Shown here one piece after another: positions 2,590 through 15,081 of a stretch of 24,000 nt of DNA; the stretch's first letter is position 1; every line of letters starts with the position of its first letter. The translations under genes and the position numbers were made by a program. The notes under the pieces were generated by a model. It had not been told where the DNA came from. It saw only the letters and a program-made list of their open reading frames with translations, and did no database searches. The stretch comes from Aeoliella straminimaris (GTDB taxonomy: Bacteria; Planctomycetota; Planctomycetia; Pirellulales; Lacipirellulaceae). The stretch lies in NCBI RefSeq assembly GCF_024054565.1, contig NZ_JAMXLR010000095.1:165966-189965 (forward strand), in the 5' to 3' direction.

Positions 2590-5500
2590 ATGAAACGCTC
2601 GTCCTTCGTTGTTTGCTTCGCTGCGCTCGCTTGTTCTTGCGTGACCGCCCTGCCCTCGCTGGCCGCCGACGAAATTGGCTTTGTCGAAACGTTTGCGCTG
2701 GCTGAGGACCGGGCCGAGGTACTCGGGCAGTTGATACCGGGCACCGAGGAGTACTATTTTTATCACGCGCTGCATTATCAGAACACAAAACAGTCGGAGA
2801 AGCTTGACGACTTGCTGGACAAATGGCGCAAGCGAGTTGAAGCCTCTGAACTCCGCAATCTGATTGTGCGTCGGCAACGACTGCTAGCGTACGACAGCGA
2901 TCCGAAAGCGACCCTCGATTGGCTACGCAACGAACTGGGTATTCAATTTGCCCACCAGCGCAGTCCCGAGCCCGGGCAGAAACCAAACTTGCCCACCGTG
3001 CTCGACCCTGCGGTAATCAGCCGACAGGCATACATTCAGCGGGCCATCGACCAGCATGACAACCTGGCTGGCTTCCAGGACACGGCGCTCGACTGGATAC
3101 TCCGCGATGGCGGCGTGGAACTCACCTCCGGCCGGCGGAGGGCCCTGTTGTCACGCATCGATCGTCCCGACTACGACAATCTGGTCGAGTTGATTGCGGC
3201 TGACCTCCGCACGAAGGAAAGCCGTGGTTTTGGCGAGTTCAAGATCCACCGGCAACTGCTCAAATCACAACTGGACGCGCTGCTGGACTTGAAGCCCGAC
3301 CTCCGCACCAATTCGAACTTCATTCATACCAATCTGGTGAAGCTCGCGCCGAACGCCGATGCCGATCCGAGCGATACGGAAGTCCGGGAGGCATATCTGC
3401 AGCGCATGTGGGCGTATGTGAAAGATTTGCCACCGGCTCACAATTCGCTGAAGGCGAACATCCTGTACGCCTTGCTCGATCATCAGCGGCAAGCCGGAAA
3501 GTACAATCGCACGCTGTTCGAGGTCTACGTGAAGCAGCCCCGGCCGATGCCCTATATGGATCCCCGCTACCTGAACAGCGACCCGGTGCGGCGCTACCAG
3601 GTGAATCTGGGACAGGACTTCTCGCCCATCACGCGATGTCCGCCGGTGGGCGACGATACGACCCTGGTGCGAGACTATCTGCTGCATTTCTTGGTTGAAC
3701 AGGACGACATTGCGCCATGGAGCGAGTGGATACGCGACACTTTCGTCAGACCGCTACTGGCCGAGGCGAAAATTGTCTCGGGTGGTCCGGATTCCGAGCG
3801 ATGGGCGTCGATGCTCACGCCATCGGCCTACCAACAGCTGAAGGACCGGGTCGACATCGATCTGGCGGTGACAAACCCACAGCAGTTCGACATGGATGAC
3901 GAAGTCACGTTGGCGGCGGACATCAAGAATGTCGACAAGCTGCTGGTCAAGGTCTATGAGGTCAACGCCTTTAACGTCTATCTCGCTACGCACCGAGAGG
4001 TAAGCACCGGTCTGGAGTTGGATGGCCTGGTGGCTGGTTCGCAGCAGGTATATGCGTACAGCGAAACCCCTTTCCGACGTGTGCGGCGCGAGTTTACGTT
4101 CCCTGAACTCGAAGGCAAACGCGGCGTCTGGATGATCGAGCTGATCGGTGGCGGGCGAAGCAGTCGCGCCCTGGTCCGGAAGGGCGGACTGCACTATCTC
4201 GCGCGGCAAGGCGTGGCGGGCACGGTGCTGTCGATTCTGGACGAACAAGACAATCCGGCTCCCAAGGCATCGGTCTGGCTAGCTGGCCGCGAGTACAAGC
4301 CCGACGAACAAGGTGGCATTGTCGTTCCGTACTCCTCCGACCCGGGCCGCCACCCCATCATCCTCCGCGATGCTGATGGCTTCGCTTCGCTAGCCTATTT
4401 TCAGCATCCTGCGGAATCCTACACGCTGGACGTTGGTTTCTTCGTCGACCGCGAGGCGCTGCTGGTTGGCGGTGAGGCTACCCTGCTGGTCCGCCCCGAT
4501 TTTCGCATCAACGGCGTGGCCGCTCCTTTGGACTTGCTGGAGCAGGTGAAATTGACGATCACGTCGACCAACCTCGACGGCATCAGCACTACGGCCGAGG
4601 TGGACGATTTCCAACTTCACAGCGACAAGGAAACCGAGCACCAGTTCGCCGTACCGCCTCGGCTGGCCACACTGAGTTTCCAGCTCAGTGCTCAGGTCGA
4701 GCAGGTGAGCACCGGCAAGAAGGTCTCGCTGTCCAGCAATGGCCTGCGCAGCGTCAACGGCATCGACAAGGAGGAATCGACCTACGAACTCCACCTAAGC
4801 CACATGGACGGGCACGCCGTAGTTGAAGTGCTGGGGAAGAACGGCGAGCGTCTGGCGGACCGCGCCGTATGGCTCGTGTTTCAACATCGCGACTTCAAGA
4901 CAAACCACGGTGTGTCTCTCAAATCCGATGAAGCGGGGCGAATCGATCTTGGCACCCTGCCCGACATTGTGCGGGTGACGGCCAATGCCGATGGCATCGA
5001 CGAGGTGGCGTGGGACATCGCTGCAGGAGAAGACGCCCACAGCCGCCCCGCAGTGCTGCAGACCGTGCAGGGCGAGGCGCTACACGTACCCCACCTAGGC
5101 GGTGCGAAACTGTCGCGGGCCGACTACTCCCTGCTAGCAGTTCGTCGCGGCAACTTTACAACCGACCAGTTCGGCAAGCTCTCCGTGGCCGGCGGATTCC
5201 TGTTAATTGAAGGCCTTGAACCGGGCGACTACAGTCTAAAGATCAAACGCGAAAACCGTGTCATTCCGATTCGCGTCACGGCCGGCAAAATGGTGGGACG
5301 ATTCGCTGCTGGCAAGCATCGAATTCTCGAAACAGCCCACCGACTGCCTCTGCATATTACCGCCGTGGCCGACGACAACGGTGACTTGCTGGTCAAGCTC
5401 GCCAACGCCGAACAGGGTACGCGGGTACATGTGCTGGTATCGAGGTTCAAACCGGCGTTTCCACTGCACGGGGCTCTGGGTGCCGCGTACGATCCCACCT

Positions 5501-8500
5501 TGCTGACTATTACTCGTCCCGCATTTCGCAATGTCTATCTGAGCGGTCGCGACATAGGCGACGAGTATCGCTACATCCTCGATCGCCGCGATCAGACAAC
5601 CTACCCGGGCAACATGCTCGATCGACCAGGATTGCTACTCAATCCGTGGGAGCTCCGTGACACCGATACGGGGAAGCAACAGGCCGCCACTGGTGGCGAG
5701 TATCAGGACGCGTCGGGCAGCACACCGTCTTCAGAAATGGCCATGGAGCCGCCACCGGCAGAAGCCCGGCATCAACTTGCGGACTTGTCGAACCTCGACT
5801 TTTTGAAGCATGCCGGCGTGGTGCTCGCGAATCTCACACCTGGTAAAGACGGCATCGTCCGCATTCCCAAGGAGCAGCTCAGCGATCGCCAGGACGTACA
5901 TATCGTGGCCATCGGCTCCACCGACACGGTGTTCCGACATGTGTCGTTGCCCGATGCTGGTGCCGCATTCCGCGACCTCCGTTTGGCTAAGCCGCTTGAT
6001 TTAAAGAAGCACTTCACCGAACGCAAGGAGGTGGCTCTGCTGGGCGAGGGCGACCAACTTGAGATTCCGGATGTTCGCGCGGCCGAAATGCAGGGGTACG
6101 ACACGCTGGCTTCGATCTATAGCTTGTACATGACCCGCTCGGGCAATCCCACGCTGGCCGAATTCGCCTTCGTGCTGAAATGGGATGCATTGGACGCTGC
6201 CGAGCAACGTTCGGAGTACTCGAAGTACGCCTCGCACGAGTTGAGTTTCTACCTGAGTCGTAAGGATCCTGAGTTCTTCGAGCAGGTTATTCTGCCCTAC
6301 TTGAAAAACAAGAAGGACAAGACCTTCATCGATCACTATTTGTTGAAGGACGACCTGAGCGAATTCTTGGATCCGTGGCGGTATGGCCGACTGAACATGG
6401 CCGAGCGCGTGCTGCTGGCCGACCGTCTGGGCGACGCGGAGCGCGACGCGACCAGGCGTCACCTGGAGGACCTGTTCGCCCAGTTGCCGCCCAACCCGTC
6501 CAAGAGTCAGAGCGAGTTCCTGACCGCGTTGCGAGGCCGATCGCTCACTGCCGATTCTGGAGTGGGTGGCGTAACGCTCAGCTTCGACAGGTTTGGCGGT
6601 TTCAGGGATGGCGAAGCGGACGCGGATGCGGAGCACTTGACCGATCGTTTTGACGCCGCCGCGAGTGCGCGGGCAGTCGACCAACCCACCTTGGCAGCGG
6701 GGCCGCCGCATGCAGGAAGCCCTATCTCTGGTGACAAATTGGCTGAACTAGAGAGTCTGGAAGCGGCTCAACGTGTGAGGAGTGCCGTGGAAGAGAGAAA
6801 GAAAGATCTGAAGCTACAAGAGCTCAACGCGGATTTGAGTTTTGCCTATGATCGCGCAGGTGGTCGCCGTGCTGGGGAGTTAGAACTGTTGCGTCGCAAG
6901 CGGGTGCGTGGTTTTTATCGCAGGATGTCGGCGGTGAAAGAGTGGGCCGAAAATAACTACTACCACCTGCCCATCGAGCAGCAGCTGGCGGACCGCGTAG
7001 CGATCAATGCCTTCTGGCGCGACTATGCCGCGCACCTGGCAGACAACGCCGACGAGCCATTCCTCTCGAAGCACGTGGCTGTGCCTACTTCGAACTTCAG
7101 CGAGATGATGCTAGCCCTGGCGGTACTCGACCTGCCCGTCGAGGCCGCCGAAGCCGAGGTAACCACCGACGCAGCGTCCCTGACCTTGAAGGTGGGTTCG
7201 CCTACCATTGTGTTCCACAAGCAAATTCAGGAAGCTGCCGAAAGCGACGACAAAACACCTGTGTTAGTGGGGCAGAATTACTTCCGCCACGGCGATCGGT
7301 ACGTGCAGGTCGATGGCGAGCAGCGTGACAAGTACGTCACCGACGAGTTCCTGCCTGGCGTCGTGTACGGGTGCCAGGTTGTGGTGACCAATCCCACTTC
7401 GGCCACGCAGAAACTCGATGTCTTGACACAAATTCCCGAGAAGGCAATGCCGGTCTTGGGTAGCAAGCAGACTTACAGCTTGCCGGTGCAACTTGGTCCC
7501 TATGCCACGCAAAAGCTGGAGTATTATTTTTACTTCCCGCGTACTGGCGACTTTGCTCATTACCCGGTTCAAGTCGCCCGCGACGAGCAACTGGCCGCCT
7601 GGGCCGAGCCCTTCACCTTTCACGTAGTCGAGCAGTTAAGCCGCATCGACAAGGCGTCATGGGACTACCTGTCGCAGTGGGGTACGTCCGACGAGGTGCT
7701 GAGCTACCTTCAGCAGAACAACATCGAACGCATCGATCTGGCCCGCATCGCATGGCGGATGCGGGATGTCGATTTCTTTAAGCAGACGCTCGAGCTGCTA
7801 GCCAAGCGGCACGTGTACAACCCCGTGCTGTGGAGCTACGCGATTTACCACAACCAACTTGACCGGATCCAACAGTATCTGCGTACGAACGACGAGTTTC
7901 TCCGCCGTTTTGGTGAGCGGATTGATTGCACGCTGGTCACGGTCGATCCGGTGGAGCGGCATTGGATTCAGCACCTGGAGTACAGCCCGCTGGTAAATGC
8001 CCGCGCCCATCGCTTGGGCCGCGATCGCAAGATCGTGAATGCCGCATTCGGCGAGCAGTACCATCGCTTGATGAACGTGCTGCGGTACAAGTCCAGGCTA
8101 TCCGAAGAGGACAAGCTCGACGTGGTGTATTACCTGTTCCTGCAGGACCGCATCGGCGAGGCTCTGGAGTGGTTCGACGAAATCGACGCCGAGAAACTGC
8201 CCACGGCCTTGCAGTTGGATTACCTGCGATGCTACGTGGCGTTCTACCGCGAGCAACCCGAGGCGGCCGAACAGATCGCCAAGCAGTATGCCGATTACCC
8301 TGTGGACCGGTGGCGAGCGCGATTCGCCAACGTGCTCTCGCAGATTGGCGAAATCCGTGGCGGCCAGGTAGCCGATAGCGGTGGTGACGAAGACCAACGC
8401 GAAGGGCTGCAGGACGAATTGGCTTCCACCGAGCCAGCACTCGAAATGAAGGTTGAGAACGGTCAGGTGCAGTTGACCTACCAGAATCTCGAGCAGGTGA

Positions 8501-9003
8501 CTGTGAACTACTACGAGATGGACGTCGAGTTCCTGTTCAGTTCGAACCCCTTCGTCGAAAGCGATGCCGATCGCTTTGGTGTGATCCAGCCGAATCGCAG
8601 CGATTCCGTCGAGCTGCCCGAGCAAGGCGACCGGCACGCCGTGGATATTCCGCAGGAGTTCACCGGCAAGAATGTTCTGGTCGAAGTGCTGGGCTCTGGC
8701 CGCCGCATCGCGCAGGCTTACTACGCCAACGATCTGAAGGTGCAGCTTGTTGAGCAATACGGCCGCTTGCAGGTCCGCGACGATAAGACGAACAAGCCGC
8801 TGTCGAAGGTGTACGTCAAGGTTTATGCTCGCACGCCCCAAGGCACCCGGTTTTTCAAGGATGGGTACACCGACTTGCGTGGTAAGTTCGACTACACAAG
8901 TCTCAACACCGACGACATCGGCGGTGTCAGCGAGTTTGCCGTGCTGGTGATGAGCAGCGACCACGGGGCCGTAGTGTTGACGGCCAAGCCGCCACAGCAA
9001 TAG
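2590..9003 (+). CDS. giant secreted protein (2137 aa), function unknown; C-terminal carboxypeptidase-regulatory-like/beta-sandwich-like segment
   Basis: Single uninterrupted 6.4-kb ORF. N-terminal signal peptide MKRSSFVVCFAALACSCVTALPSLAADE. The C-terminal stretch KVYVKVYARTPQGTRFFKDGYTDLRGKFDY resembles prealbumin-fold (CarboxypepD_reg-like) domains. No catalytic motif was recognised by eye. Confidence 0.85.
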   Translation: MKRSSFVVCFAALACSCVTALPSLAADEIGFVETFALAEDRAEVLGQLIPGTEEYYFYHALHYQNTKQSEKLDDLLDKWRKRVEASELRNLIVRRQRLLAYDSDPKATLDWLRNELGIQFAHQRSPEPGQKPNLPTVLDPAVISRQAYIQRAIDQHDNLAGFQDTALDWILRDGGVELTSGRRRALLSRIDRPDYDNLVELIAADLRTKESRGFGEFKIHRQLLKSQLDALLDLKPDLRTNSNFIHTNLVKLAPNADADPSDTEVREAYLQRMWAYVKDLPPAHNSLKANILYALLDHQRQAGKYNRTLFEVYVKQPRPMPYMDPRYLNSDPVRRYQVNLGQDFSPITRCPPVGDDTTLVRDYLLHFLVEQDDIAPWSEWIRDTFVRPLLAEAKIVSGGPDSERWASMLTPSAYQQLKDRVDIDLAVTNPQQFDMDDEVTLAADIKNVDKLLVKVYEVNAFNVYLATHREVSTGLELDGLVAGSQQVYAYSETPFRRVRREFTFPELEGKRGVWMIELIGGGRSSRALVRKGGLHYLARQGVAGTVLSILDEQDNPAPKASVWLAGREYKPDEQGGIVVPYSSDPGRHPIILRDADGFASLAYFQHPAESYTLDVGFFVDREALLVGGEATLLVRPDFRINGVAAPLDLLEQVKLTITSTNLDGISTTAEVDDFQLHSDKETEHQFAVPPRLATLSFQLSAQVEQVSTGKKVSLSSNGLRSVNGIDKEESTYELHLSHMDGHAVVEVLGKNGERLADRAVWLVFQHRDFKTNHGVSLKSDEAGRIDLGTLPDIVRVTANADGIDEVAWDIAAGEDAHSRPAVLQTVQGEALHVPHLGGAKLSRADYSLLAVRRGNFTTDQFGKLSVAGGFLLIEGLEPGDYSLKIKRENRVIPIRVTAGKMVGRFAAGKHRILETAHRLPLHITAVADDNGDLLVKLANAEQGTRVHVLVSRFKPAFPLHGALGAAYDPTLLTITRPAFRNVYLSGRDIGDEYRYILDRRDQTTYPGNMLDRPGLLLNPWELRDTDTGKQQAATGGEYQDASGSTPSSEMAMEPPPAEARHQLADLSNLDFLKHAGVVLANLTPGKDGIVRIPKEQLSDRQDVHIVAIGSTDTVFRHVSLPDAGAAFRDLRLAKPLDLKKHFTERKEVALLGEGDQLEIPDVRAAEMQGYDTLASIYSLYMTRSGNPTLAEFAFVLKWDALDAAEQRSEYSKYASHELSFYLSRKDPEFFEQVILPYLKNKKDKTFIDHYLLKDDLSEFLDPWRYGRLNMAERVLLADRLGDAERDATRRHLEDLFAQLPPNPSKSQSEFLTALRGRSLTADSGVGGVTLSFDRFGGFRDGEADADAEHLTDRFDAAASARAVDQPTLAAGPPHAGSPISGDKLAELESLEAAQRVRSAVEERKKDLKLQELNADLSFAYDRAGGRRAGELELLRRKRVRGFYRRMSAVKEWAENNYYHLPIEQQLADRVAINAFWRDYAAHLADNADEPFLSKHVAVPTSNFSEMMLALAVLDLPVEAAEAEVTTDAASLTLKVGSPTIVFHKQIQEAAESDDKTPVLVGQNYFRHGDRYVQVDGEQRDKYVTDEFLPGVVYGCQVVVTNPTSATQKLDVLTQIPEKAMPVLGSKQTYSLPVQLGPYATQKLEYYFYFPRTGDFAHYPVQVARDEQLAAWAEPFTFHVVEQLSRIDKASWDYLSQWGTSDEVLSYLQQNNIERIDLARIAWRMRDVDFFKQTLELLAKRHVYNPVLWSYAIYHNQLDRIQQYLRTNDEFLRRFGERIDCTLVTVDPVERHWIQHLEYSPLVNARAHRLGRDRKIVNAAFGEQYHRLMNVLRYKSRLSEEDKLDVVYYLFLQDRIGEALEWFDEIDAEKLPTALQLDYLRCYVAFYREQPEAAEQIAKQYADYPVDRWRARFANVLSQIGEIRGGQVADSGGDEDQREGLQDELASTEPALEMKVENGQVQLTYQNLEQVTVNYYEMDVEFLFSSNPFVESDADRFGVIQPNRSDSVELPEQGDRHAVDIPQEFTGKNVLVEVLGSGRRIAQAYYANDLKVQLVEQYGRLQVRDDKTNKPLSKVYVKVYARTPQGTRFFKDGYTDLRGKFDYTSLNTDDIGGVSEFAVLVMSSDHGAVVLTAKPPQQ

Positions 9004-9295: not shown

Positions 9296-10945
<1,650 letters not shown>

Positions 10946-10970
10946 CTCGACCTCCTTTCAGTGAAAAATA

Positions 10971-11088
10971 CCCGACGAAGCTTGGGCCGAGTTGCCGCGT
11001 CACAGACGCTGGAAGCTCCCGCTTCCGTGGCTACCGACGGGTGTTACCCCGACTCGGTTCGTGGATGTACTCCGCACCGACAGTCGGA
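10971..11088 (-). ncRNA. Y-RNA-like module 5, embedded in the rsr 5' leader (degenerate distal domain)
   Basis: The 5' strand UCCGAC-UG-UCGGUGC-GGAG-UACAU (from 11088) and the 3' strand CUCGG-N10-GUCGGG (to 10971) match the family pattern. The distal part keeps a decayed T-arm (CGGG-GUAACA-CCCG) and hairpins GGAAGC-GGGA-GCUUCC and GCGUC-UGU-GACGC. It is followed by UAUUUUU and then the rsr RBS. Confidence 0.5.
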
Positions 11089-11116
11089 CGTGTCTGGTAG
11101 TTGTTTATCAAAGGAT

Positions 11117-11256
11117 CCCGACGAGGGATTGCATTAGAGACTTTACGGCGAGCTACCATTGCTCCACGGCGCGACCGTTTCCTCGAAATGGCGCCGACGG
11201 GACTCGAACCCGTAACCTCCGGCGTGTGATGCATGTACTCCAACACGGCAGTCGGG
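11117..11256 (-). ncRNA. Y-RNA-like module 4 with a circularly permuted tRNA-like domain (YrlA-type architecture)
   Basis: Closing stem CCCGAC (11256-11251) / GUCGGG (11122-11117), plus UGGAG/CUCUA. The distal domain reads 5'->3': T-arm ACGGG-UUCGAGU-CCCGU, closed acceptor-like hairpin CGGCGC...GCGCCG (inner UUUC-GAG-GAAA), then U-G, then D-arm GAGC-AAUGGUA-GCUC. Confidence 0.65.
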
Positions 11257-11276
11257 ATATACGTGTGCGATAAATT

Positions 11277-11406
11277 GATCGACGAGGGGGCGACCAGAGA
11301 TATTTCTCATTGCTCTACCAACTGAGCTACATCGACGCCTGGCGCCGACGACGGGGATCGAACCCGTGACTCATGAGTTAACATGTACTCTAATCTGCAG
11401 TCGATC
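11277..11406 (-). ncRNA. Y-RNA-like module 3 with a circularly permuted tRNA-like domain (YrlA-type architecture)
   Basis: Three-segment closing stem: GAUCGAC (11406-11400) / GUCGAUC (11283-11277), UAGAG/CUCUG, and CUCAU/AUGAG. The distal domain is T-arm ACGGG-UUCGAUC-CCCGU, a closed acceptor-like hairpin CGUCGGCG..CGUCGAUG (8-9 bp), then U-A in the tRNA position 8-9 register, then D-arm GCUC-AGUUGGUA-GAGC. Confidence 0.7.
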
Positions 11407-11423
11407 GTAGGTTTGTGTTGAGT

Positions 11424-11585
11424 CCGACGAAGTGGTGGCGAGAGTTGCGTTTACGATCGTCCGTGCCCCCGTATGGAGGTCGTTGACTGGCCCCTTTGTC
11501 TCGGAGAGACTTTGGCGCCGTTCACTAGTCCGTCGCCCGACATCGCTACCTTAGGACCGTCATGTACTCCCAACCGTCAGTCGGG
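11424..11585 (-). ncRNA. Y-RNA-like module 2 (family closing stem, degenerate distal domain)
   Basis: 5' strand CCCGAC-UG-ACGGUUG-GGAG-UACAU (from 11585); 3' strand CUCUC-N11-GUCGG (to 11424). The interior holds an acceptor-hairpin-like GGCGCC-AAA-GUCUC-UCC-GAGAC-AAA-GGGGCC but no clean T or D arms. Confidence 0.5.
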
Positions 11586-11595
11586 CTATGTCAAA

Positions 11596-11669
11596 GACCA
11601 GCCAACGAAGATTTGGTTCGGATAAGGTCATCATTTCAGGATGTAGTCCGAACCGGCAGTTGACTGGTC
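11596..11669 (-). ncRNA. Y-RNA-like module 1 (minimal, stem-loop only)
   Basis: Self-contained hairpin. GACCAGUCAAC (11669-11659) pairs over 11 bp with GUUGGCUGGUC (11606-11596), and an inner helix GGUUCGGA/UCCGAACC follows. It carries the family motifs UG...GGAC-UACAU and CUUC-GUUG. It starts 2 nt after the tRNA-Cys discriminator. Confidence 0.6.
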
Positions 11670-11671
11670 AA

Positions 11672-11743
11672 AGACGCCGGTGGGAATCGAACCCACGAAA
11701 AACTGCTTTGCAGACAGCCGCCCGACCATCAGGCTTCAGCGTC
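11672..11743 (-). tRNA. tRNA-Cys(GCA), divergent (A8 instead of U8)
   Basis: Hand-folded cloverleaf, 72 nt. Acceptor GACGCUG/CGGCGUC. D-arm GCCU-GAUGGUC-GGGC. Anticodon arm GCUGU-CUGCAAA-GCAGU. Variable loop UUUUC. T-arm GUGGG-UUCGAUU-CCCAC. U73 discriminator, which is the Cys identity element. No encoded CCA. Confidence 0.7.
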
Positions 11744-11748
11744 TTGGC

Positions 11749-11848
11749 GAATGCGGAAGTGGGAATTCGGAATGCGGAATCTAACGCAAGCGAGCGTTAA
11801 GTATCGCCTGCGGGTGATTCCGCCTTCCGCATTCCGAACTCCGCATTC
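11749..11848 (-). other. about 100-nt branched inverted-repeat spacer between tRNA-Arg(GCG) and tRNA-Cys
   Basis: Outer 9 bp GAAUGCGGA/UCCGCAUUC. Inner 11 bp GGAAUGCGGAA/UUCCGCAUUCC. Apical hairpins GCGG-AAUCAC-CCGC and UAACGC-UCGCUU-GCGUUA. Built from repeated GAATGCGGAA units. Confidence 0.6.
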
Positions 11849-11852
11849 AGAG

Positions 11853-11924
11853 CAGCCCGTCCAGGAATCGAACCTGGCCTTCGACCTTCGCACGGTCGCG
11901 TGCAATCCTCTACACTCACAGGCT
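11853..11924 (-). tRNA. tRNA-Arg(GCG), divergent (G8 instead of U8)
   Basis: 72-nt cloverleaf. Acceptor AGCCUGU/ACGGGCU (7 bp). D-arm GUGU-AGAGGAUU-GCAC. Anticodon arm CGACC-GUGCGAA-GGUCG. Variable loop AAGG. T-arm CCAGG-UUCGAUU-CCUGG. Discriminator G. Confidence 0.7.
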
Positions 11925-11927
11925 ATA

Positions 11928-11995
11928 GGAGTATTCGGGGATCAGGATTCAGGGAAAGAAGGACGCGCGTCCTCCCCCTGATCCCTCACCCCTCC
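11928..11995 (-). other. about 68-nt structured hairpin spacer
   Basis: GGAG/CUCC plus a perfect 9 bp GGGAUCAGG/CCUGAUCCC enclose AGGAC-GCGC-GUCCU and GGG/CCC pairings. It lies between the Arg(UCG)-like element and tRNA-Arg(GCG). Confidence 0.55.
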
Positions 11996-12001
11996 ACAAA
12001 G

Positions 12002-12071
12002 TACCTCGCCAGGGAATCGAACCTCGTCTTGCAGATTCGAAGTCTGCGATGCTATCCAGCACACCCACACG
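12002..12071 (-). pseudogene. tRNA-Arg(UCG)-like element, probably decayed
   Basis: Perfect anticodon arm GCAGA-CUUCGAA-UCUGC and a UUCGAUU T-loop. However, the T-stem has an A.C mismatch, the D-arm is truncated (GUGC-UGGAUA-GCAU), and I could not pair the acceptor strands. Confidence 0.35.
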
Positions 12072-12079
12072 GCGTGTAA

Positions 12080-12168
12080 TATTTCGACCTGGAATCGAAC
12101 CAGGACTTGGACTTTAGGAGAGTCCTGTGCGATCCGCCCCGTTTCCAATAAACACTGTCCATCGAGAT
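12080..12168 (-). pseudogene. tRNA-Arg(CCU)-like element with an expanded D region
   Basis: Perfect T-arm CCUGG-UUCGAUU-CCAGG and anticodon arm GGACU-CUCCUAA-AGUCC. The acceptor ATCTCGA/TCGAAAT pairs 6 of 7. The D stem GUGU/GCAC would enclose a 21-nt loop. Total 89 nt. Confidence 0.4.
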
Positions 12169-12389
12169 TTGAGGCCGATCCTCGTGCGCCGGGAGACTTG
12201 CACTAGCATCACCCGGCCACCTGTAGTGACTTCGCTTGAACAACAAAGGTTCATTAAAGGTGATGCGAGCATCACTGCCGCTTCTGAGAATATGCTTGAC
12301 ACTTTACCAGCCGGAATCGAAAATGCGGGCATTCAACAATCATTACGCTGTTACTCATCTCGGTCAGCATACTACTTGGAGCCGAGCTA

Positions 12390-13694
12390 ATGACGCTGAG
12401 CAAAAAACTGACTTACCGGTTAAATCCGTTGCACCTAAAACGCTTGGTTCGAGTTGCAGTACTTGTTGCGTTCTATTTGCATTTTAGTTCTAAGGATTTT
12501 GTCTTAGGGATGTCGCCTGAATCCGCATTGGCTACTGTGGAACTGGTGGCAGATTTCGATACTCAGATTCCAGAAAAGCTGTCTAATTTTTCGAGCCTAG
12601 GTCAACGAGCCGCTATCAGCGAATCATCGGTATTCTTCACCGGCAATAACGGGCTCTACAAGGCCGATGGCGACTCACTTGTTCGGATCGTCGATAACAG
12701 CACGCCAATTCCAGGTAAATCATCGAACTTTGTAGGAGTGTCAAACGAGACTTTATTAGTGGATGATGGTGACGTGGCCTTTGATGGCACAGAAATCTTC
12801 GGATTTCGAAACGGCATCTATGTTTATAGCTCGTCCACAGACAGTATCACGTTCATAGCTGACGAAGACTCGGCGGTGCCAAATGGTACTGGGAGCTTTG
12901 CCGGCTTTCGCGCGCCTTCTATCAACAATGGAAATGTCGCCTTCTTTGGGTTCAGTGACCCGTCGTCCCAGAATGGCATATACACCACGCTGGGGGGACA
13001 ACTCCGCGTTGTTGCAGACACCAATACTATTATCCCTGGCGGCTCCGGACCGTTCAGTGATCTACTCGGATTCCCCGTCATTGAAGGCGATAGCATCACA
13101 TTTGTAGGAAGACGCTTCAATGAAAGCCAGGGAATCTACAGAGAGTCAGGTGGCACACTGTCTACTCTCTATGATCTGACCACTTCCATCCCAGGTGGTT
13201 CGGGAAGTTTTACAAGTTTCCGAAACAATGAGTTGAATGTCGAAGGCGGTTCTTTGGCCTTTATGGGCGGTGGAGCAGGCGGATACTTTGGAGTCTTTAA
13301 GGATGTGGGAGACGGTCTTACTCTAGTCGCCGACTCGAGTACGCAGGCTCCCGGTGGGACAAATACCTTCCTCGCTATTAGCAACGTTTCATTGGACGGC
13401 GAAAATGTTGCCTTTATTGGGAGCGATGGTGGTACTCGTGGAATCTATACAGATGCTCTCGGCCAATTAACAAAGATTCTAGATACGTCGGATATCATTG
13501 ATGGTCGACAGCCCAGCGAATTTCACATTGGCCGGGACTCCTTGGTTGGGAATCAGTTGGCATTTCGGGTGCGTTTTACTGACAACACTGAGAGCATCTA
13601 TGTCGCAACTCTTGTTCCTGAACCATCTACCCTGGTCGCATTCCTATTGGCCACGGCGTGTTTAGTTATGTGCCGAAATTCCTTTAGGCATTAG
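12390..13694 (+). CDS. PEP-CTERM-anchored repeat protein (about 7 repeats of a roughly 50-aa GIY...AD..T.IPGG.G.F...G..VAF.G unit)
   Basis: 434-aa ORF. C-terminal VPEPSTLVAFLLATACLVMCRNSFRH is a PEP motif followed by a TM helix and a basic tail. The N-terminus is hydrophobic. The sequence is visibly more AT-rich than its flanks. The start codon is uncertain (alternative Met41). Confidence 0.85.
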   Translation: MTLSKKLTYRLNPLHLKRLVRVAVLVAFYLHFSSKDFVLGMSPESALATVELVADFDTQIPEKLSNFSSLGQRAAISESSVFFTGNNGLYKADGDSLVRIVDNSTPIPGKSSNFVGVSNETLLVDDGDVAFDGTEIFGFRNGIYVYSSSTDSITFIADEDSAVPNGTGSFAGFRAPSINNGNVAFFGFSDPSSQNGIYTTLGGQLRVVADTNTIIPGGSGPFSDLLGFPVIEGDSITFVGRRFNESQGIYRESGGTLSTLYDLTTSIPGGSGSFTSFRNNELNVEGGSLAFMGGGAGGYFGVFKDVGDGLTLVADSSTQAPGGTNTFLAISNVSLDGENVAFIGSDGGTRGIYTDALGQLTKILDTSDIIDGRQPSEFHIGRDSLVGNQLAFRVRFTDNTESIYVATLVPEPSTLVAFLLATACLVMCRNSFRH

Positions 13695-13717
13695 CATGCT
13701 TCGAAATGGGGTCATAG

Positions 13718-13787
13718 CACGAGCGCAAGGATTCGAACCCTGTCCGTCAGTTTTGGAGGCTGACTGCTCTCCCAGGAGCACACTCGC
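13718..13787 (-). tRNA. tRNA-Trp(CCA), short and divergent
   Basis: 70 nt. Acceptor GCGAGUG/CGCUCGU. Compact D region UGCUCCUGGGAGAGCAG. Anticodon arm UCAGC-CUCCAAA-ACUGA with a C31.A39 mismatch (alternatively a 5-bp stem with a 9-nt loop). T-arm CAGGG-UUCGAAU-CCUUG. G73 as in bacterial tRNA-Trp. Confidence 0.6.
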
Positions 13788-13793
13788 ATAATA

Positions 13794-13869
13794 GGTGACC
13801 GAGCGGAATCGAACCGCCGTCGTACGGAATCACAGTCCGTCTCCGGAAACCAGCACCGGACCCGGCCAC
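13794..13869 (-). tRNA. tRNA-His(GUG), divergent (5-bp D stem, G8, no encoded G-1 in the main register)
   Basis: 76 nt. Acceptor GUGGCCG/CGGUCAC. D-arm UCCGG-UGCUGGUUU-CCGGA. Anticodon arm ACGGA-CUGUGAU-UCCGU. T-arm GGCGG-UUCGAUU-CCGCU. C73 discriminator. Confidence 0.65.
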
Positions 13870-13871
13870 AG

Positions 13872-13961
13872 CGGAAGGCGTGGGATTCGAACCCACATGC
13901 CGCCTTCTGAGCGACTTCGCATTAGCAGTGCGACCCGGCAAGCCGTATCCGGCTACCTTCC
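13872..13961 (-). tRNA. tRNA-Ser(GCU), class II with a long variable arm (A8)
   Basis: 90 nt. Acceptor GGAAGGU/GCCUUCC. D-arm CCGG-AUACGGCUUG-CCGG. Anticodon arm UCGCA-CUGCUAA-UGCGA. 20-nt variable arm (GUCGC...GCGGC). T-arm GUGGG-UUCGAAU-CCCAC. G73. It starts 2 nt upstream of tRNA-His. Confidence 0.75.
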
Positions 13962-13972
13962 GTATTTTTCAG

Positions 13973-14043
13973 TGGACCCACCGAGAATCGAACTCGGATC
14001 TCCGACCAGCCAAGCCAGCGTCGTCCCGTTGGACCATGAGCCC
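13973..14043 (-). tRNA. tRNA-Ala(GGC), divergent
   Basis: 71 nt. Acceptor GGGCUCA/UGGGUCC with the G3.U70 Ala identity pair, and A73. D-arm UG-GUCCAACGGGACGAC. Anticodon arm CUGGC-UUGGCUG-GUCGG (two G.U pairs, U37). T-arm CCGAG-UUCGAUU-CUCGG. Confidence 0.7.
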
Positions 14044-14053
14044 TCGTGTTGAG

Positions 14054-14124
14054 TGGAGCGTCGGGGAATCGAACCCCGATTGCCTGGGTGCAAACCAAGC
14101 GTCTTCCCGTTGGACCAACGCCCC
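14054..14124 (-). tRNA. tRNA-Ala(UGC), divergent
   Basis: 71 nt. Acceptor GGGGCGU/ACGCUCC with G3.U70, and A73. D-arm UG-GUCCAACGGGAAGAC. Anticodon arm CUUGG-UUUGCAC-CCAGG. T-arm CGGGG-UUCGAUU-CCCCG. Confidence 0.8.
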
Positions 14125-14139
14125 GTCGCCTTCTATTAG

Positions 14140-14265
14140 AGGTCCGTCCGGGAATTGAACCCGAGCAGTATTTGTTCTTGCTACCGCCTTCGCCCTTCAT
14201 CTTCGCTATCGCTCGGCGGGCTCAGTTGCTACCAAGAACGTGTGCCGCCAAAACACTTACAGACC
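14140..14265 (-). ncRNA. tRNA-like RNA with about 54 extra nt replacing the anticodon loop
   Basis: Acceptor GGUCUGU/ACGGACC (7 bp). D-arm GUGU-UUUGGCG-GCAC. T-arm UCGGG-UUCAAUU-CCCGG. The 76-nt middle forms a 7-bp stem GUUCUUG/CAAGAAC plus CCGCC/GGCGG, capped by a purine-rich 26-nt loop. No 7-nt anticodon loop was found. Confidence 0.55.
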
Positions 14266-14271
14266 AAGCTT

Positions 14272-14345
14272 GGCTATCAGCTGTTAGCTATTGACTATAA
14301 GCCAGAATCGTCTGGCCCACAGCTTATAGCCAACAGCCGATAGCC
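14272..14345 (-). other. 74-nt hairpin spacer with a 20-bp stem
   Basis: Arms at 14272-14291 and 14326-14345 pair over 20 bp. The two non-Watson-Crick positions are G.U on the minus-strand RNA but A.C on the plus strand. Apical CCAGA-CGAU-UCUGG hairpin. It sits between tRNA-Val and the insertion-bearing tRNA-like RNA. Confidence 0.6.
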
Positions 14346-14352
14346 CAACCAA

Positions 14353-14425
14353 TGATCCCGGATGGAGTCGAACCATCGCTCTCCTGGTTGTCATCCAGGC
14401 GTCGTAACCGTTGGACCACGGGATC
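14353..14425 (-). tRNA. tRNA-Val(GAC), divergent D-arm
   Basis: 73 nt. Acceptor GAUCCCG/CGGGAUC (perfect). U8. D-arm GUCCAACGGUUACGAC. Anticodon arm CCUGG-AUGACAA-CCAGG. Variable loop AGAGC. T-arm GAUGG-UUCGACU-CCAUC. A73. Confidence 0.8.
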
Positions 14426-14460
14426 GTGGCGTGCTCCGACTAGGCTGGTAGTGGCCACAG

Positions 14461-14520
14461 AAAAAGGTCCACTGTCGCTGCTGACACCGGGCCTTTTTCC
14501 GATGAGCTCTGTGGCTCATC
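14461..14520. other. two adjacent hairpins at the upstream edge of the tRNA array (terminator-like / insulator)
   Basis: 14461-14498: AAAAAGGTCC...GGGCCTTTTT, a 10-bp stem with an inner TGTC/GACA helix and A/T runs on both sides. 14501-14520: GATGAGC-TCTGTG-GCTCATC, a perfect 7-bp stem. Confidence 0.45.
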
Positions 14521-14973
14521 TTCGAGTTAGACCAGGTGTCACCAACGCCTTGCCTCACCGGCGTACGCAGACCTCGAACGGCAACTTGCCCCGTGAGCAA
14601 ATGTAGTCGCATACCGTTTAACGGCCTGCGGCGATCGCCAATGCGACGCCGGTTCGATATTTGATCTTGTATGCAGCATTGAAGGTCCCTCCAACTGATC
14701 GATACCCCGAGGGCGAAGTTGATCGTGTCTCGCGGTCTCTCTGTAAGAGTGCCGAATCGTCAAATGGTTCGTGCAGAAATCAAAGCACTTGTGCAAAGAA
14801 GTCGGAAATCATTCGTTACCGCTCGGTGGAGAGGCAGTCTCCCGAAGTTTGGTCCGCAGTAGACCGGCGGACGGACATGGAGACTATTCCTCCAAAAGTA
14901 GTATCGCCTCTGGAGCTCACCACACTTTGGGTAACACCCCAGCGGAGGCGGGGTCGTCAGCCGTTCCGAAAAC

Positions 14974-15004
14974 GAAAAAAGCTCCTCGAATTCGAGGAGC
15001 TTTT
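14974..15004 (-). terminator. rho-independent terminator downstream of tRNA-Lys
   Basis: GCTCCTCG-AATT-CGAGGAGC (14981-15000) is followed on the minus strand by UUUUUU (plus-strand A-run 14975-14980). It lies 4 nt after the tRNA-Lys 3' end. Confidence 0.85.
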
Positions 15005-15008
15005 GCAG

Positions 15009-15081
<73 letters not shown>

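Follow-up and report, generated by a model that had tools for sequence, protein, structure and literature searches.

The window analysed here is a 24,000-nucleotide (nt) stretch of the Aeoliella straminimaris genome, which carries on its minus strand an array of tRNA genes together with rsr, the gene of a Ro60 orthologue. Within this array, a tRNA-shaped RNA with an extended anticodon arm had been proposed at 14140-14265 in an earlier note made from the letters alone. Comparison with related loci (designated below by L-numbers) bears out this shape on the minus strand, the ends matching those of tRNA-Thr(GGU) at about 18 loci. These sequence comparisons identify the candidate as the syntenic tRNA-Thr(GGU) gene of an rsr-linked array, carrying an inserted structured element that is called R1 here, and as no new class of RNA.

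An interrupted tRNA-Thr(GGU) gene in a conserved array

Read along the minus strand from 14265 to 14140, the candidate runs GGUCUGU-AA-GUGUUUUGGCGGCAC-A-CGUUC-UUGGUA-[51 nt]-A-GAACA-AAUACUGC-UCGGG-UUCAAUU-CCCGG-ACGGACC-U, and the following parts can be distinguished:

14140-14265, minus strand: chimeric gene, a tRNA-Thr(GGU) body with R1 in the anticodon loop, 126 nt including the discriminator U (sequence, synteny and orthologue alignment)
14259-14265 with 14141-14147, minus strand: acceptor stem, GGUCUGU with ACGGACC, six Watson-Crick pairs and one U.G
14242-14256, minus strand: D-arm, GUGU-UUUGGCG-GCAC (sequence)
14230-14240, minus strand: 5' strand of the anticodon stem, CGUUC, and loop positions 32-37, UUGGUA (alignment; as in L063, CGUUC-UUGGUAA-GAACG)
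14231-14233, minus strand: anticodon GGU, still present 5' of the insert
14179-14229, minus strand: 51-nt insertion between tRNA positions 37 and 38 (orthologue alignment and in-silico deletion)
14173-14178, minus strand: A38 and the 3' strand of the anticodon stem, GAACA, in which a G43-to-A change creates a C27.A43 mismatch
14165-14172, minus strand: variable region, AAUACUGC, 8 nt (4 nt in the orthologues)
14148-14164, minus strand: T-arm, UCGGG-UUCAAUU-CCCGG, conserved among the orthologues

The identity of the gene rests first on its position. The order ...Leu(GAG)-Val(GAC)-Thr(GGU)-Ala(UGC)-Ala(GGC)-Ser(GCU)...Arg(UCG)-Arg(GCG)-Cys(GCA) is common to the rsr loci, and the candidate is flanked in this conserved order by tRNA-Val(GAC) upstream (14353-14425, minus strand) and tRNA-Ala(UGC) downstream (14053-14124, minus strand). 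At the approximately 18 related loci the same slot holds a canonical 72-nt tRNA-Thr(GGU), which the candidate matches up to A37 and again from the T-arm on, with a few substitutions in the D-loop and anticodon stem. The acceptor stem is the same in nearly all orthologues (one pair differs in L063), and differences in the D-arm are confined to its loop. Moreover, the retained A38-GAAC complements the candidate's own CGUUC exactly as in the CGUUC-UUGGUAA-GAACG of L063. In its slot, its anticodon with the 5' anticodon stem, and its acceptor stem, D-arm and T-arm, the candidate agrees with a canonical array tRNA-Thr(GGU), whereas the 51-nt structured insert between A37 and A38, the G43-to-A change, the longer variable region and the failure of standard tools to detect the gene set it apart. 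After exact in-silico deletion of the 51 nt, default ARAGORN calls a tRNA-Thr(ggt), in which the C27.A43 mismatch and the 8-nt variable loop remain; deletion of one 48-nt repeat unit yields no tRNA call. The boundary of the insertion can slide within the repeated GGUAGCA.

This syntenic identity, with the anticodon GGU retained, had escaped the earlier note, which described the anticodon loop as replaced. The loop is instead interrupted, since UUGGUA is kept 5' of the insert and A-GAAC 3' of it. The D-arm, the T-arm with its UUCAAUU loop and a 7-bp stem GUUCUUG/CAAGAAC were correctly seen there, and the acceptor stem does have 7 bp, one of them being a U.G wobble and the stem therefore short of perfect. 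The anticodon nucleotide G34 is paired inside the GUUCUUG/CAAGAAC helix. The candidate accordingly combines several hallmarks of a tRNA (7-bp acceptor stem, D-arm with GG, T-arm with a UUCRANY loop) with the loss of the 5-bp anticodon stem closing a 7-nt loop with U33, which is regained only after the in-silico deletion.

Neither default ARAGORN nor the Rfam tRNA model (RF00005) calls a tRNA in this interval, and ten surrounding tRNAs are called. In intron mode, ARAGORN does propose a tRNA-Thr(GGU), giving it an intron of 33 nt and a ragged variable arm of 26 nt; the single 51-nt insert at 37/38 in the orthologue alignment contradicts this model. The ARAGORN search for transfer-messenger RNA (option -m) is empty for the candidate, and the G3:U70 pair of that RNA is absent. 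A 92-codon open reading frame (ORF) at 13922-14200, whose start would be the AUG of an AUGAA bulge in R1, runs through tRNA genes and is regarded as spurious.

A direct repeat, GGUAGCAA, occurs at 14226-14233 and 14178-14185 and had been described as flanking the extension. The repeat is present, and it is built into the R1 family (5' GGNAGCAA, 3' GCGGUAGC) and does not duplicate a flank. A target-site duplication was rejected because uninterrupted orthologues read GGUAAG (GGUAAGAAC in L063) and because both halves of the repeat are conserved parts of R1 in other contexts. The window also contains GAACAAAUAC, which resembles the spacer following R1 in L084; this likeness was judged a coincidence, since GAAC pairs perfectly with the retained 5' stem, just as it does in L063.

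The R1 element and its distribution

The R1 family was traced from a BLAST match of the extension to a spacer in L019, followed by a scan of metagenomes with a degenerate 24-mer and then by a covariance model, which recovered 13 copies scoring 41-82 bits. The consensus begins with (G)GNAG(C/U)AA and the first strand of an 8-bp helix, continues with G, CCGANC-GANA-GNGARG and AUGAA, and after the second strand of the same helix concludes with GCGGUAG. All family motifs (AGCAA ... GCGGUAG) are found in the window copy, whose inner helix has one C.A in place of C-G. Its parts are:

14180-14233, minus strand: R1 as matched by the covariance model, 76.4 bits, expect value (E) about 1e-16
14218-14225 with 14188-14195, minus strand: outer helix, CUGAGCCC with GGGCGAAG, containing a tandem G.A/A.G and present in the minimum free energy (MFE) fold
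14201-14216, minus strand: inner helix, CCGAGC/GCGAAG, with the GNRA tetraloop GAUA at 14207-14210 (covariation and RNAalifold)
14196-14200, minus strand: 5-nt bulge AUGAA, found in 10 of the 13 copies, with AUCAA in an eleventh
14181-14187, minus strand: 3' motif GCGGUAG, invariant in all 13 copies

A comparative test of covariation in the extension, which had been proposed in the earlier note together with an Rfam search, gave support to this two-helix fold. Across the 13 copies, compensatory changes were found at 8 of 16 R1 pairs. In the outer helix 6 of 8 pairs covary, and two internal pairs are a tandem G.A/A.G in several copies. In the inner helix one pair flips between G-C and C-G in a 7:6 ratio, and in L036 the tandem G.A/A.G becomes G-C/G-C, with the C-G pair below it changed to U-A. 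The inner helix was left out of the model used to align the copies, so that its support is independent of the fit of the alignment. In the same count 79% of cells are paired, compared with 27-37% when the partners are slid, and none of 500 shuffles reached the observed values on any measure. RNAalifold on its own returned the same two helices, and both also appear in the cloverleaf-constrained fold of the candidate (-44.5 kcal/mol), which lies within 0.4 kcal/mol of the unconstrained MFE fold that contains them as well. On this comparative sequence evidence, R1 is read as an irregular two-helix hairpin with tandem G.A pairs, a GNRA cap and an AUGAA bulge, whose fold is supported by covariation.

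This structure differs from that initially proposed. A CCGCC/GGCGG helix is invariant across 8 copies and therefore beyond a covariation test, has one pair broken in 3 of the 8, and gives -33.1 as against -44.5 kcal/mol. What had been seen as a 26-nt purine-rich loop is mostly helical in the comparative fold, being made up of CUGAGCCC/GGGCGAAG and CCGAGC/GCGAAG with its GAUA cap.

No Rfam 15 family matched R1 at E up to 10. Hammerhead (CUGANGA/GAAA), kink-turn, C/D box and sarcin-ricin loop motifs were rejected by eye, their core nucleotides or geometry being absent or unconserved. Several metagenome pattern matches (L082/L086/L089, L087, L090 and the viral L102) were set aside as chance, as they have neither the flanking helix nor GCGGUAG and lie in coding or AT-rich context.

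Host sites were determined by aligning host regions to uninterrupted orthologues and by inspecting the flanks. The 13 copies are distributed as follows:

Window, tRNA-Thr(GGU): anticodon loop
L036: directly 3' of the anticodon loop of a tRNA-Arg(GCG) 5' half, a complete Arg(GCG) gene then following
L081a Gly(UCC), L094b Ser(CGA) and L019 Leu(GAG): T-loop, with an extra 3' segment of about 20 nt common to all three
L018, Ser(UGA): D-loop region
L084a (after Val(GAC), just before Thr(GGU)) and L084b (after Arg(UCG)): abutting or overlapping the tRNA 3' end
L081b and L094a, syntenic, just upstream of Asn(GUU): abutting or overlapping the tRNA 3' end, with an internal G-C to A-U compensatory change
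L083 (= L091), eutBC; L088, an Nramp-like gene; L085, an ORF: just downstream of these co-oriented ORFs

All 13 copies lie on the strand of local transcription (two-sided p 2.4e-4 for 13 sites; about 5e-4 for 12 independent sites, with the L081b/L094a pair counted as one). Near-identical copies occur in different genomes and in different loops of different tRNAs, and about 1.3 Mb of Pirellulales DNA around rsr holds four copies, all within arrays. Judging by these sequences, R1 behaves as a low-copy, mobile or horizontally exchanged, strand-specific element that is enriched in tRNA arrays. It might be speculated that its ends (AGCAA...GCGGUAG) derive from the D-loop of a class-II tRNA, for which L018 is suggestive; of 11 copies, however, just 3 can form the D-stem that this would require.

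The rsr-linked array and its remodelling

The window is chromosomal, encoding a sigma-54 activator, aconitase and a CLC channel, and in its 24 kb no splicing endonuclease or ligase. A phage origin was rejected, as a phage collection shares with it just a 56-nt stretch of tRNA-Lys. The rsr-to-array block spans 9296-15081 on the minus strand, with 3.2 kb between the rsr start and the candidate upstream of it, and includes:

9296-10945, minus strand: rsr, a Ro60 orthologue with TROVE and vWA_Ro60 domains, downstream of the array and on the same strand
11112-11258 and 11273-11407, minus strand: two matches to YrlA, a bacterial Y RNA, between the array and rsr (35.5 and 34.9 bits, below the gathering score of 69)
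14267-14351, minus strand: 85-nt near-perfect low-complexity hairpin filling the Val-Thr spacer (-58.2 kcal/mol), which is 5-17 nt long in relatives

Further Y-RNA-like modules are possible by eye at about 10980-11100 and 11440-11660, with the common motifs CGACUG...GGAGUACAU and CUUCGUCGG, and the whole suggests three or four tandem divergent Y-RNA genes that the Rfam model does not capture. A search with Rsr, one genome being taken per species, gave 80 loci, all in Planctomycetota and mostly in Pirellulales, the best match being a Bythopirellula metagenome-assembled genome with 89% identity; the flanking acyltransferase groups with proteins annotated as Aeoliella sp. At many Pirellulales rsr loci (including L001, L094 and L095), same-strand Y-RNA-like modules lie upstream together with the syntenic array, which comprises up to 40 tRNA genes. 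Long tRNA arrays (L-arrays) are known in Planctomycetes and elsewhere, some pseudogenes included, and an array in Anabaena is induced by translational stress along with rtcB (PMC8421152, PMC4758250). In these L-array papers, neither a link to rsr nor any short structured insertion was found to be mentioned.

The array of the window contains 10 standard tRNAs, compared with 38-40 in relatives, and large non-tRNA gaps. A sister strain (sample SRR23287148) shares 98.2% identity with the window over 11.7 kb outside the array; inside it (window 11697-12286 against L092 1-540) identity falls to 89.5%, and a segment with tRNA-Cys(GCA) and a hairpin is missing as an indel. On these sequences the array appears to evolve or recombine much faster than its surroundings. 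At the corresponding chromosomal site of the closest Aeoliella genomes (L098, L101), the acyltransferase is followed directly by Rrf2/PNT genes, and array and rsr are absent there, so that the array, Y-RNA modules and rsr can be regarded as a variable island. Together these observations point to a redundant, fast-turnover array that tolerates the disruption of its genes.

A second element was also found in such arrays, a GC-rich palindrome GGGCACCGAC...GUUGGUC with the reverse complement GCCGACC...GUCGGUGCCC, which is present in both orientations. Its positions are:

L041 2693-2787; L048 and L054, about 3454-3550; L020 3646-3741, 3951-4046 and 6639-6731: right after the anticodon in tRNAs of several identities, two genes in the case of L020
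L002 7285-7382; L008 7877-7969: Thr(GGU) slot
L019 1346-1449: Gln slot
L018, about 150-190: T-arm

In L041, L048 and L054, a tRNA-Lys(UUU) is intact except that the palindrome takes the place of its variable loop, its 3' anticodon stem and part of its anticodon. This variant, seen at three loci of two organisms (L041; L048 and L054), is to be read from its sequence as a replacement and not as a clean intron. The occurrence of both orientations is as expected of a DNA-level repeat, unlike R1. Other remodelled genes include the Val(GAC)-slot gene of L019 (2368-2440), which has a shortened anticodon loop and is reported by ARAGORN as '???(gc)', and Ser(CGA) of L094 (6367-6600), which has a variable-arm insertion of about 85 nt besides R1 in its T-loop.

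Several additional features of the arrays were noted. Long low-complexity-repeat hairpins similar to that of the Val-Thr spacer lie at 11752-11852 and 11930-11998 of the window (minus strand; -52 and -36 kcal/mol), and array spacers filled by hairpins were also seen in L011, L052, L054, L066 and L068, the spacers of other genomes measuring 5-17 nt. These hairpins give only weak, spurious matches to miRNA models and are unlike intrinsic terminators, because no U-run follows them. A 434-aa DUF7453 ORF (12390-13694) on the plus strand, opposite to the array, has a GC content of 49-52% against about 60% and looks like a foreign insertion. It splits tRNA-Trp from tRNA-Arg(UCG); in relatives this interval holds Thr(UGU) and Arg(CCU), in some cases together with Arg(CCG). 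The arrays of L018, L019, L020 and L084 have a non-tRNA gap of about 650-850 nt after tRNA-His and before Trp or Thr(UGU), and in L094 a phage-type integrase lies beside tRNA-Met just upstream of the array. Adjoining rsr, a 2137-aa ORF without Pfam match occupies 2590-9003 on the plus strand, and a 2137-residue gene is also called in L092.

Origin and possible roles of the chimeric gene

An uninterrupted Thr(GGU) is found in the closest relatives with a readable slot, each of which has 89% Rsr identity (L001, L094 and L095/L096). The array of L094 contains R1 at two other sites, and one of these copies is 87% identical to the window insert. Among the loci compared, this chimera was found in one genome only and, judged from these sequences, is lineage-specific. 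The candidate is most likely a non-decoding tRNA body bearing a mobile structured element, and it is fairly probable that it arose recently, in this lineage, as a by-product of the movement of R1 within an array that is redundant and eroding fast, with no new RNA having been selected. The insertion itself was probably neutral.

According to this explanation, the candidate would be transcribed as part of the whole array, and its intact acceptor stem, D-arm and T-arm would let RNase P and the 3'-end enzymes release a tRNA-like RNA of about 126 nt. The product would be L-shaped, the anticodon stem running via GUUCUUG/CAAGAAC into the R1 hairpin. Such an RNA should be unable to decode, because G34 is paired and the 7-nt anticodon loop is absent. 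Anticodon nucleotides are identity elements for bacterial threonyl-tRNA synthetase, and because the enzyme reads them, charging with threonine is probably impaired as well. Engineered tRNA bodies in which a hairpin insert replaces the anticodon stem-loop are processed and stable in Escherichia coli (PMC3753655), for which reason end processing and stability would be expected here too. The candidate resembles these scaffolds in keeping the acceptor stem, D-arm and T-arm while the anticodon stem-loop has turned into a hairpin insert, and differs from them in being a natural counterpart, not a designed one, that is known here from its sequence.

Several points weigh against the by-product explanation. 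Transcription, processing and stability of the candidate are all inferred, and the only sister strain found has contigs that end at both edges of the array, leaving the candidate outside the assembly. The insertion coincides exactly with the canonical intron site, and cutting it out precisely all but restores a tRNA, as would be expected of an intron. Furthermore, R1 within tRNA genes is always in loops and never in stems, and the host tRNAs are otherwise largely intact, further insertions being present in the hosts L094b and L018. Instead of neutral damage, selection for functional chimeras could account for such loop-only placement.

One alternative, which seems unlikely, is that selection has kept the chimera as a functional non-coding RNA, its tRNA body serving as a scaffold for processing and stability or as a handle for the Rsr/Y-RNA machinery and R1 as the effector arm. 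Conserved unpaired nucleotides together with covarying helices would be expected of an RNA that binds a ligand or protein, and R1 keeps to the transcribed strand throughout; where it is embedded, it is in tRNA loops alone, or else it is placed for release by tRNA processing. The locus also lies upstream of YrlA-like modules and, by 3.2 kb, of rsr; YrlA Y RNAs mimic tRNAs and are encoded beside rsr, within a criterion of about 4 kb (PMC4201824). However, the chimera is confined to one genome and absent at 89% Rsr identity, its host array is shrinking and hypervariable, and R1 also occurs free of tRNA, so that a tRNA scaffold is not required. The comparison with YrlA (RF02553) is similarly divided. 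Both have a tRNA-like body and a long stem and are encoded within 4 kb of rsr, whereas YrlA ends in a Ro-binding stem and has a closed acceptor stem, and the candidate has an open acceptor stem and a long stem closed by a GNRA loop. A link to Y-like modules had been suggested in the earlier note. The neighbourhood agrees with it, in that rsr and two sub-threshold YrlA-like modules lie about 3 kb downstream on the same strand, and homology does not: no YrlA similarity was detected, the RF02553 model having no hit there with E up to 10.

It is likewise doubtful that R1 is purely a DNA-level selfish palindrome resembling repetitive extragenic palindromic (REP) elements or miniature inverted-repeat transposable elements (MITEs), possibly moved by an HUH-type transposase, with the hairpin kept for the transposase and the chimera a dead pseudogene. 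Small palindromic repeats of this kind invade non-essential genes, and R1 is similarly a short hairpin that occurs at many unrelated sites in near-identical copies across genomes. It has G(U/G)AG 5' and GGUAG 3' of the hairpin, motifs that we take to recall the GTAG tetranucleotide of REP elements. The same arrays are invaded in both orientations by the second, clearly DNA-level palindrome (GGGCACCGAC...GUUGGUC), and the strand bias of R1 could track the direction of replication instead of transcription. On the other hand, neither the high copy number nor the two orientations of REP/MITE repeats were seen in the rsr-flanking Pirellulales DNA (4 copies in about 1.3 Mb, all in arrays) and the 13 copies, every one of which is co-oriented with transcription, as the second palindrome is not. 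The helices of R1 tolerate G.U pairs and exchange tandem G.A for Watson-Crick pairs, in the manner of RNA covariation, and its long conserved unpaired segments would be unneeded by a simple palindrome.

That R1 represents a new bacterial RNA class in tRNA genes, either as a spliced intron of neither group I nor bulge-helix-bulge (BHB) type that hops among anticodon, D- and T-loops or as a tRNA-dependent small RNA acting with Rsr and Y RNA, appears quite improbable. The intron explanation taken by itself is very improbable. It would have R1 spliced at 37/38 by protein or by itself and the halves rejoined (for example by an RtcB-type ligase) into a working tRNA-Thr(GGU), and the D- and T-loop copies would be non-canonical introns in a bacterial parallel to the intron transposition of Thermoproteales. 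The canonical position and the ARAGORN call of tRNA-Thr(ggt) after removal of the 51 nt speak for it, as do the co-regulation of long tRNA arrays with rtcB in Anabaena (PMC8421152) and the presence of near-identical R1 copies in different loops of different tRNAs, as with Thermoproteales introns (PMC4090602). Archaeal tRNA introns also include a tRNA-Trp intron in which a C/D-box RNA is nested (PMC4090602). R1 shares with archaeal tRNA introns the 37/38 site, the spread over anticodon, D- and T-loops and the nesting of a structured RNA in a tRNA gene. It differs from them in its bacterial host, in the copies that lie outside tRNA genes and in that its removal does not always restore a normal tRNA.

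The structural evidence also argues against splicing. Archaeal tRNA introns need the archaeal endonuclease and a BHB motif, in which a 4-bp helix separates two 3-nt bulges (PMC4090602). When the comparative fold of the candidate was inspected, no BHB was seen, in agreement with the earlier note. In its place are an internal loop of 3 nt/5 nt, which holds the 5' junction, then a 2-bp helix and an AA bulge, and the 3' junction lies inside the 7-bp helix. The tRNA introns described in bacteria are group I (PMC4090602), and the insert of just 51 nt is, as had been recognized from the start, too short for one and has no Rfam match at E up to 10. The spliced product would keep the C27.A43 mismatch and the 8-nt variable loop, a single excision would leave the T-loop hosts without a normal T-loop, the L036 copy follows a tRNA half without a 3' exon, and close relatives manage with an uninterrupted gene. 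A group I intron has a self-splicing core, P1-P9, and is typically 200 nt or more in length. Because the chimera is absent from the closest relatives with a readable slot, neither the intron nor the scaffold explanation is favoured.

Interrupted tRNA genes are themselves already known, and R1 is a previously undescribed, uncatalogued structured element. Bacterial tRNA genes are not known to be interrupted by anything other than group I introns, and here a structured element of 51 nt lies at the canonical intron position, while its presence in D- and T-loops of other tRNAs of the same kind of array resembles intron transposition in Thermoproteales. Of greater interest than this one locus is the wider pattern, in which R1 occurs in loops of rsr-linked array tRNAs and without exception on the transcribed strand. 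If R1 is merely selfish, it still adds an RNA motif family that Rfam lacks, and the chimera would be a tRNA scaffold occurring in nature and would illustrate how a redundant array decays. If it is spliced or functional, it would open a new chapter of bacterial tRNA biology and bear on the ties between tRNA arrays and Ro60/Y-RNA loci.

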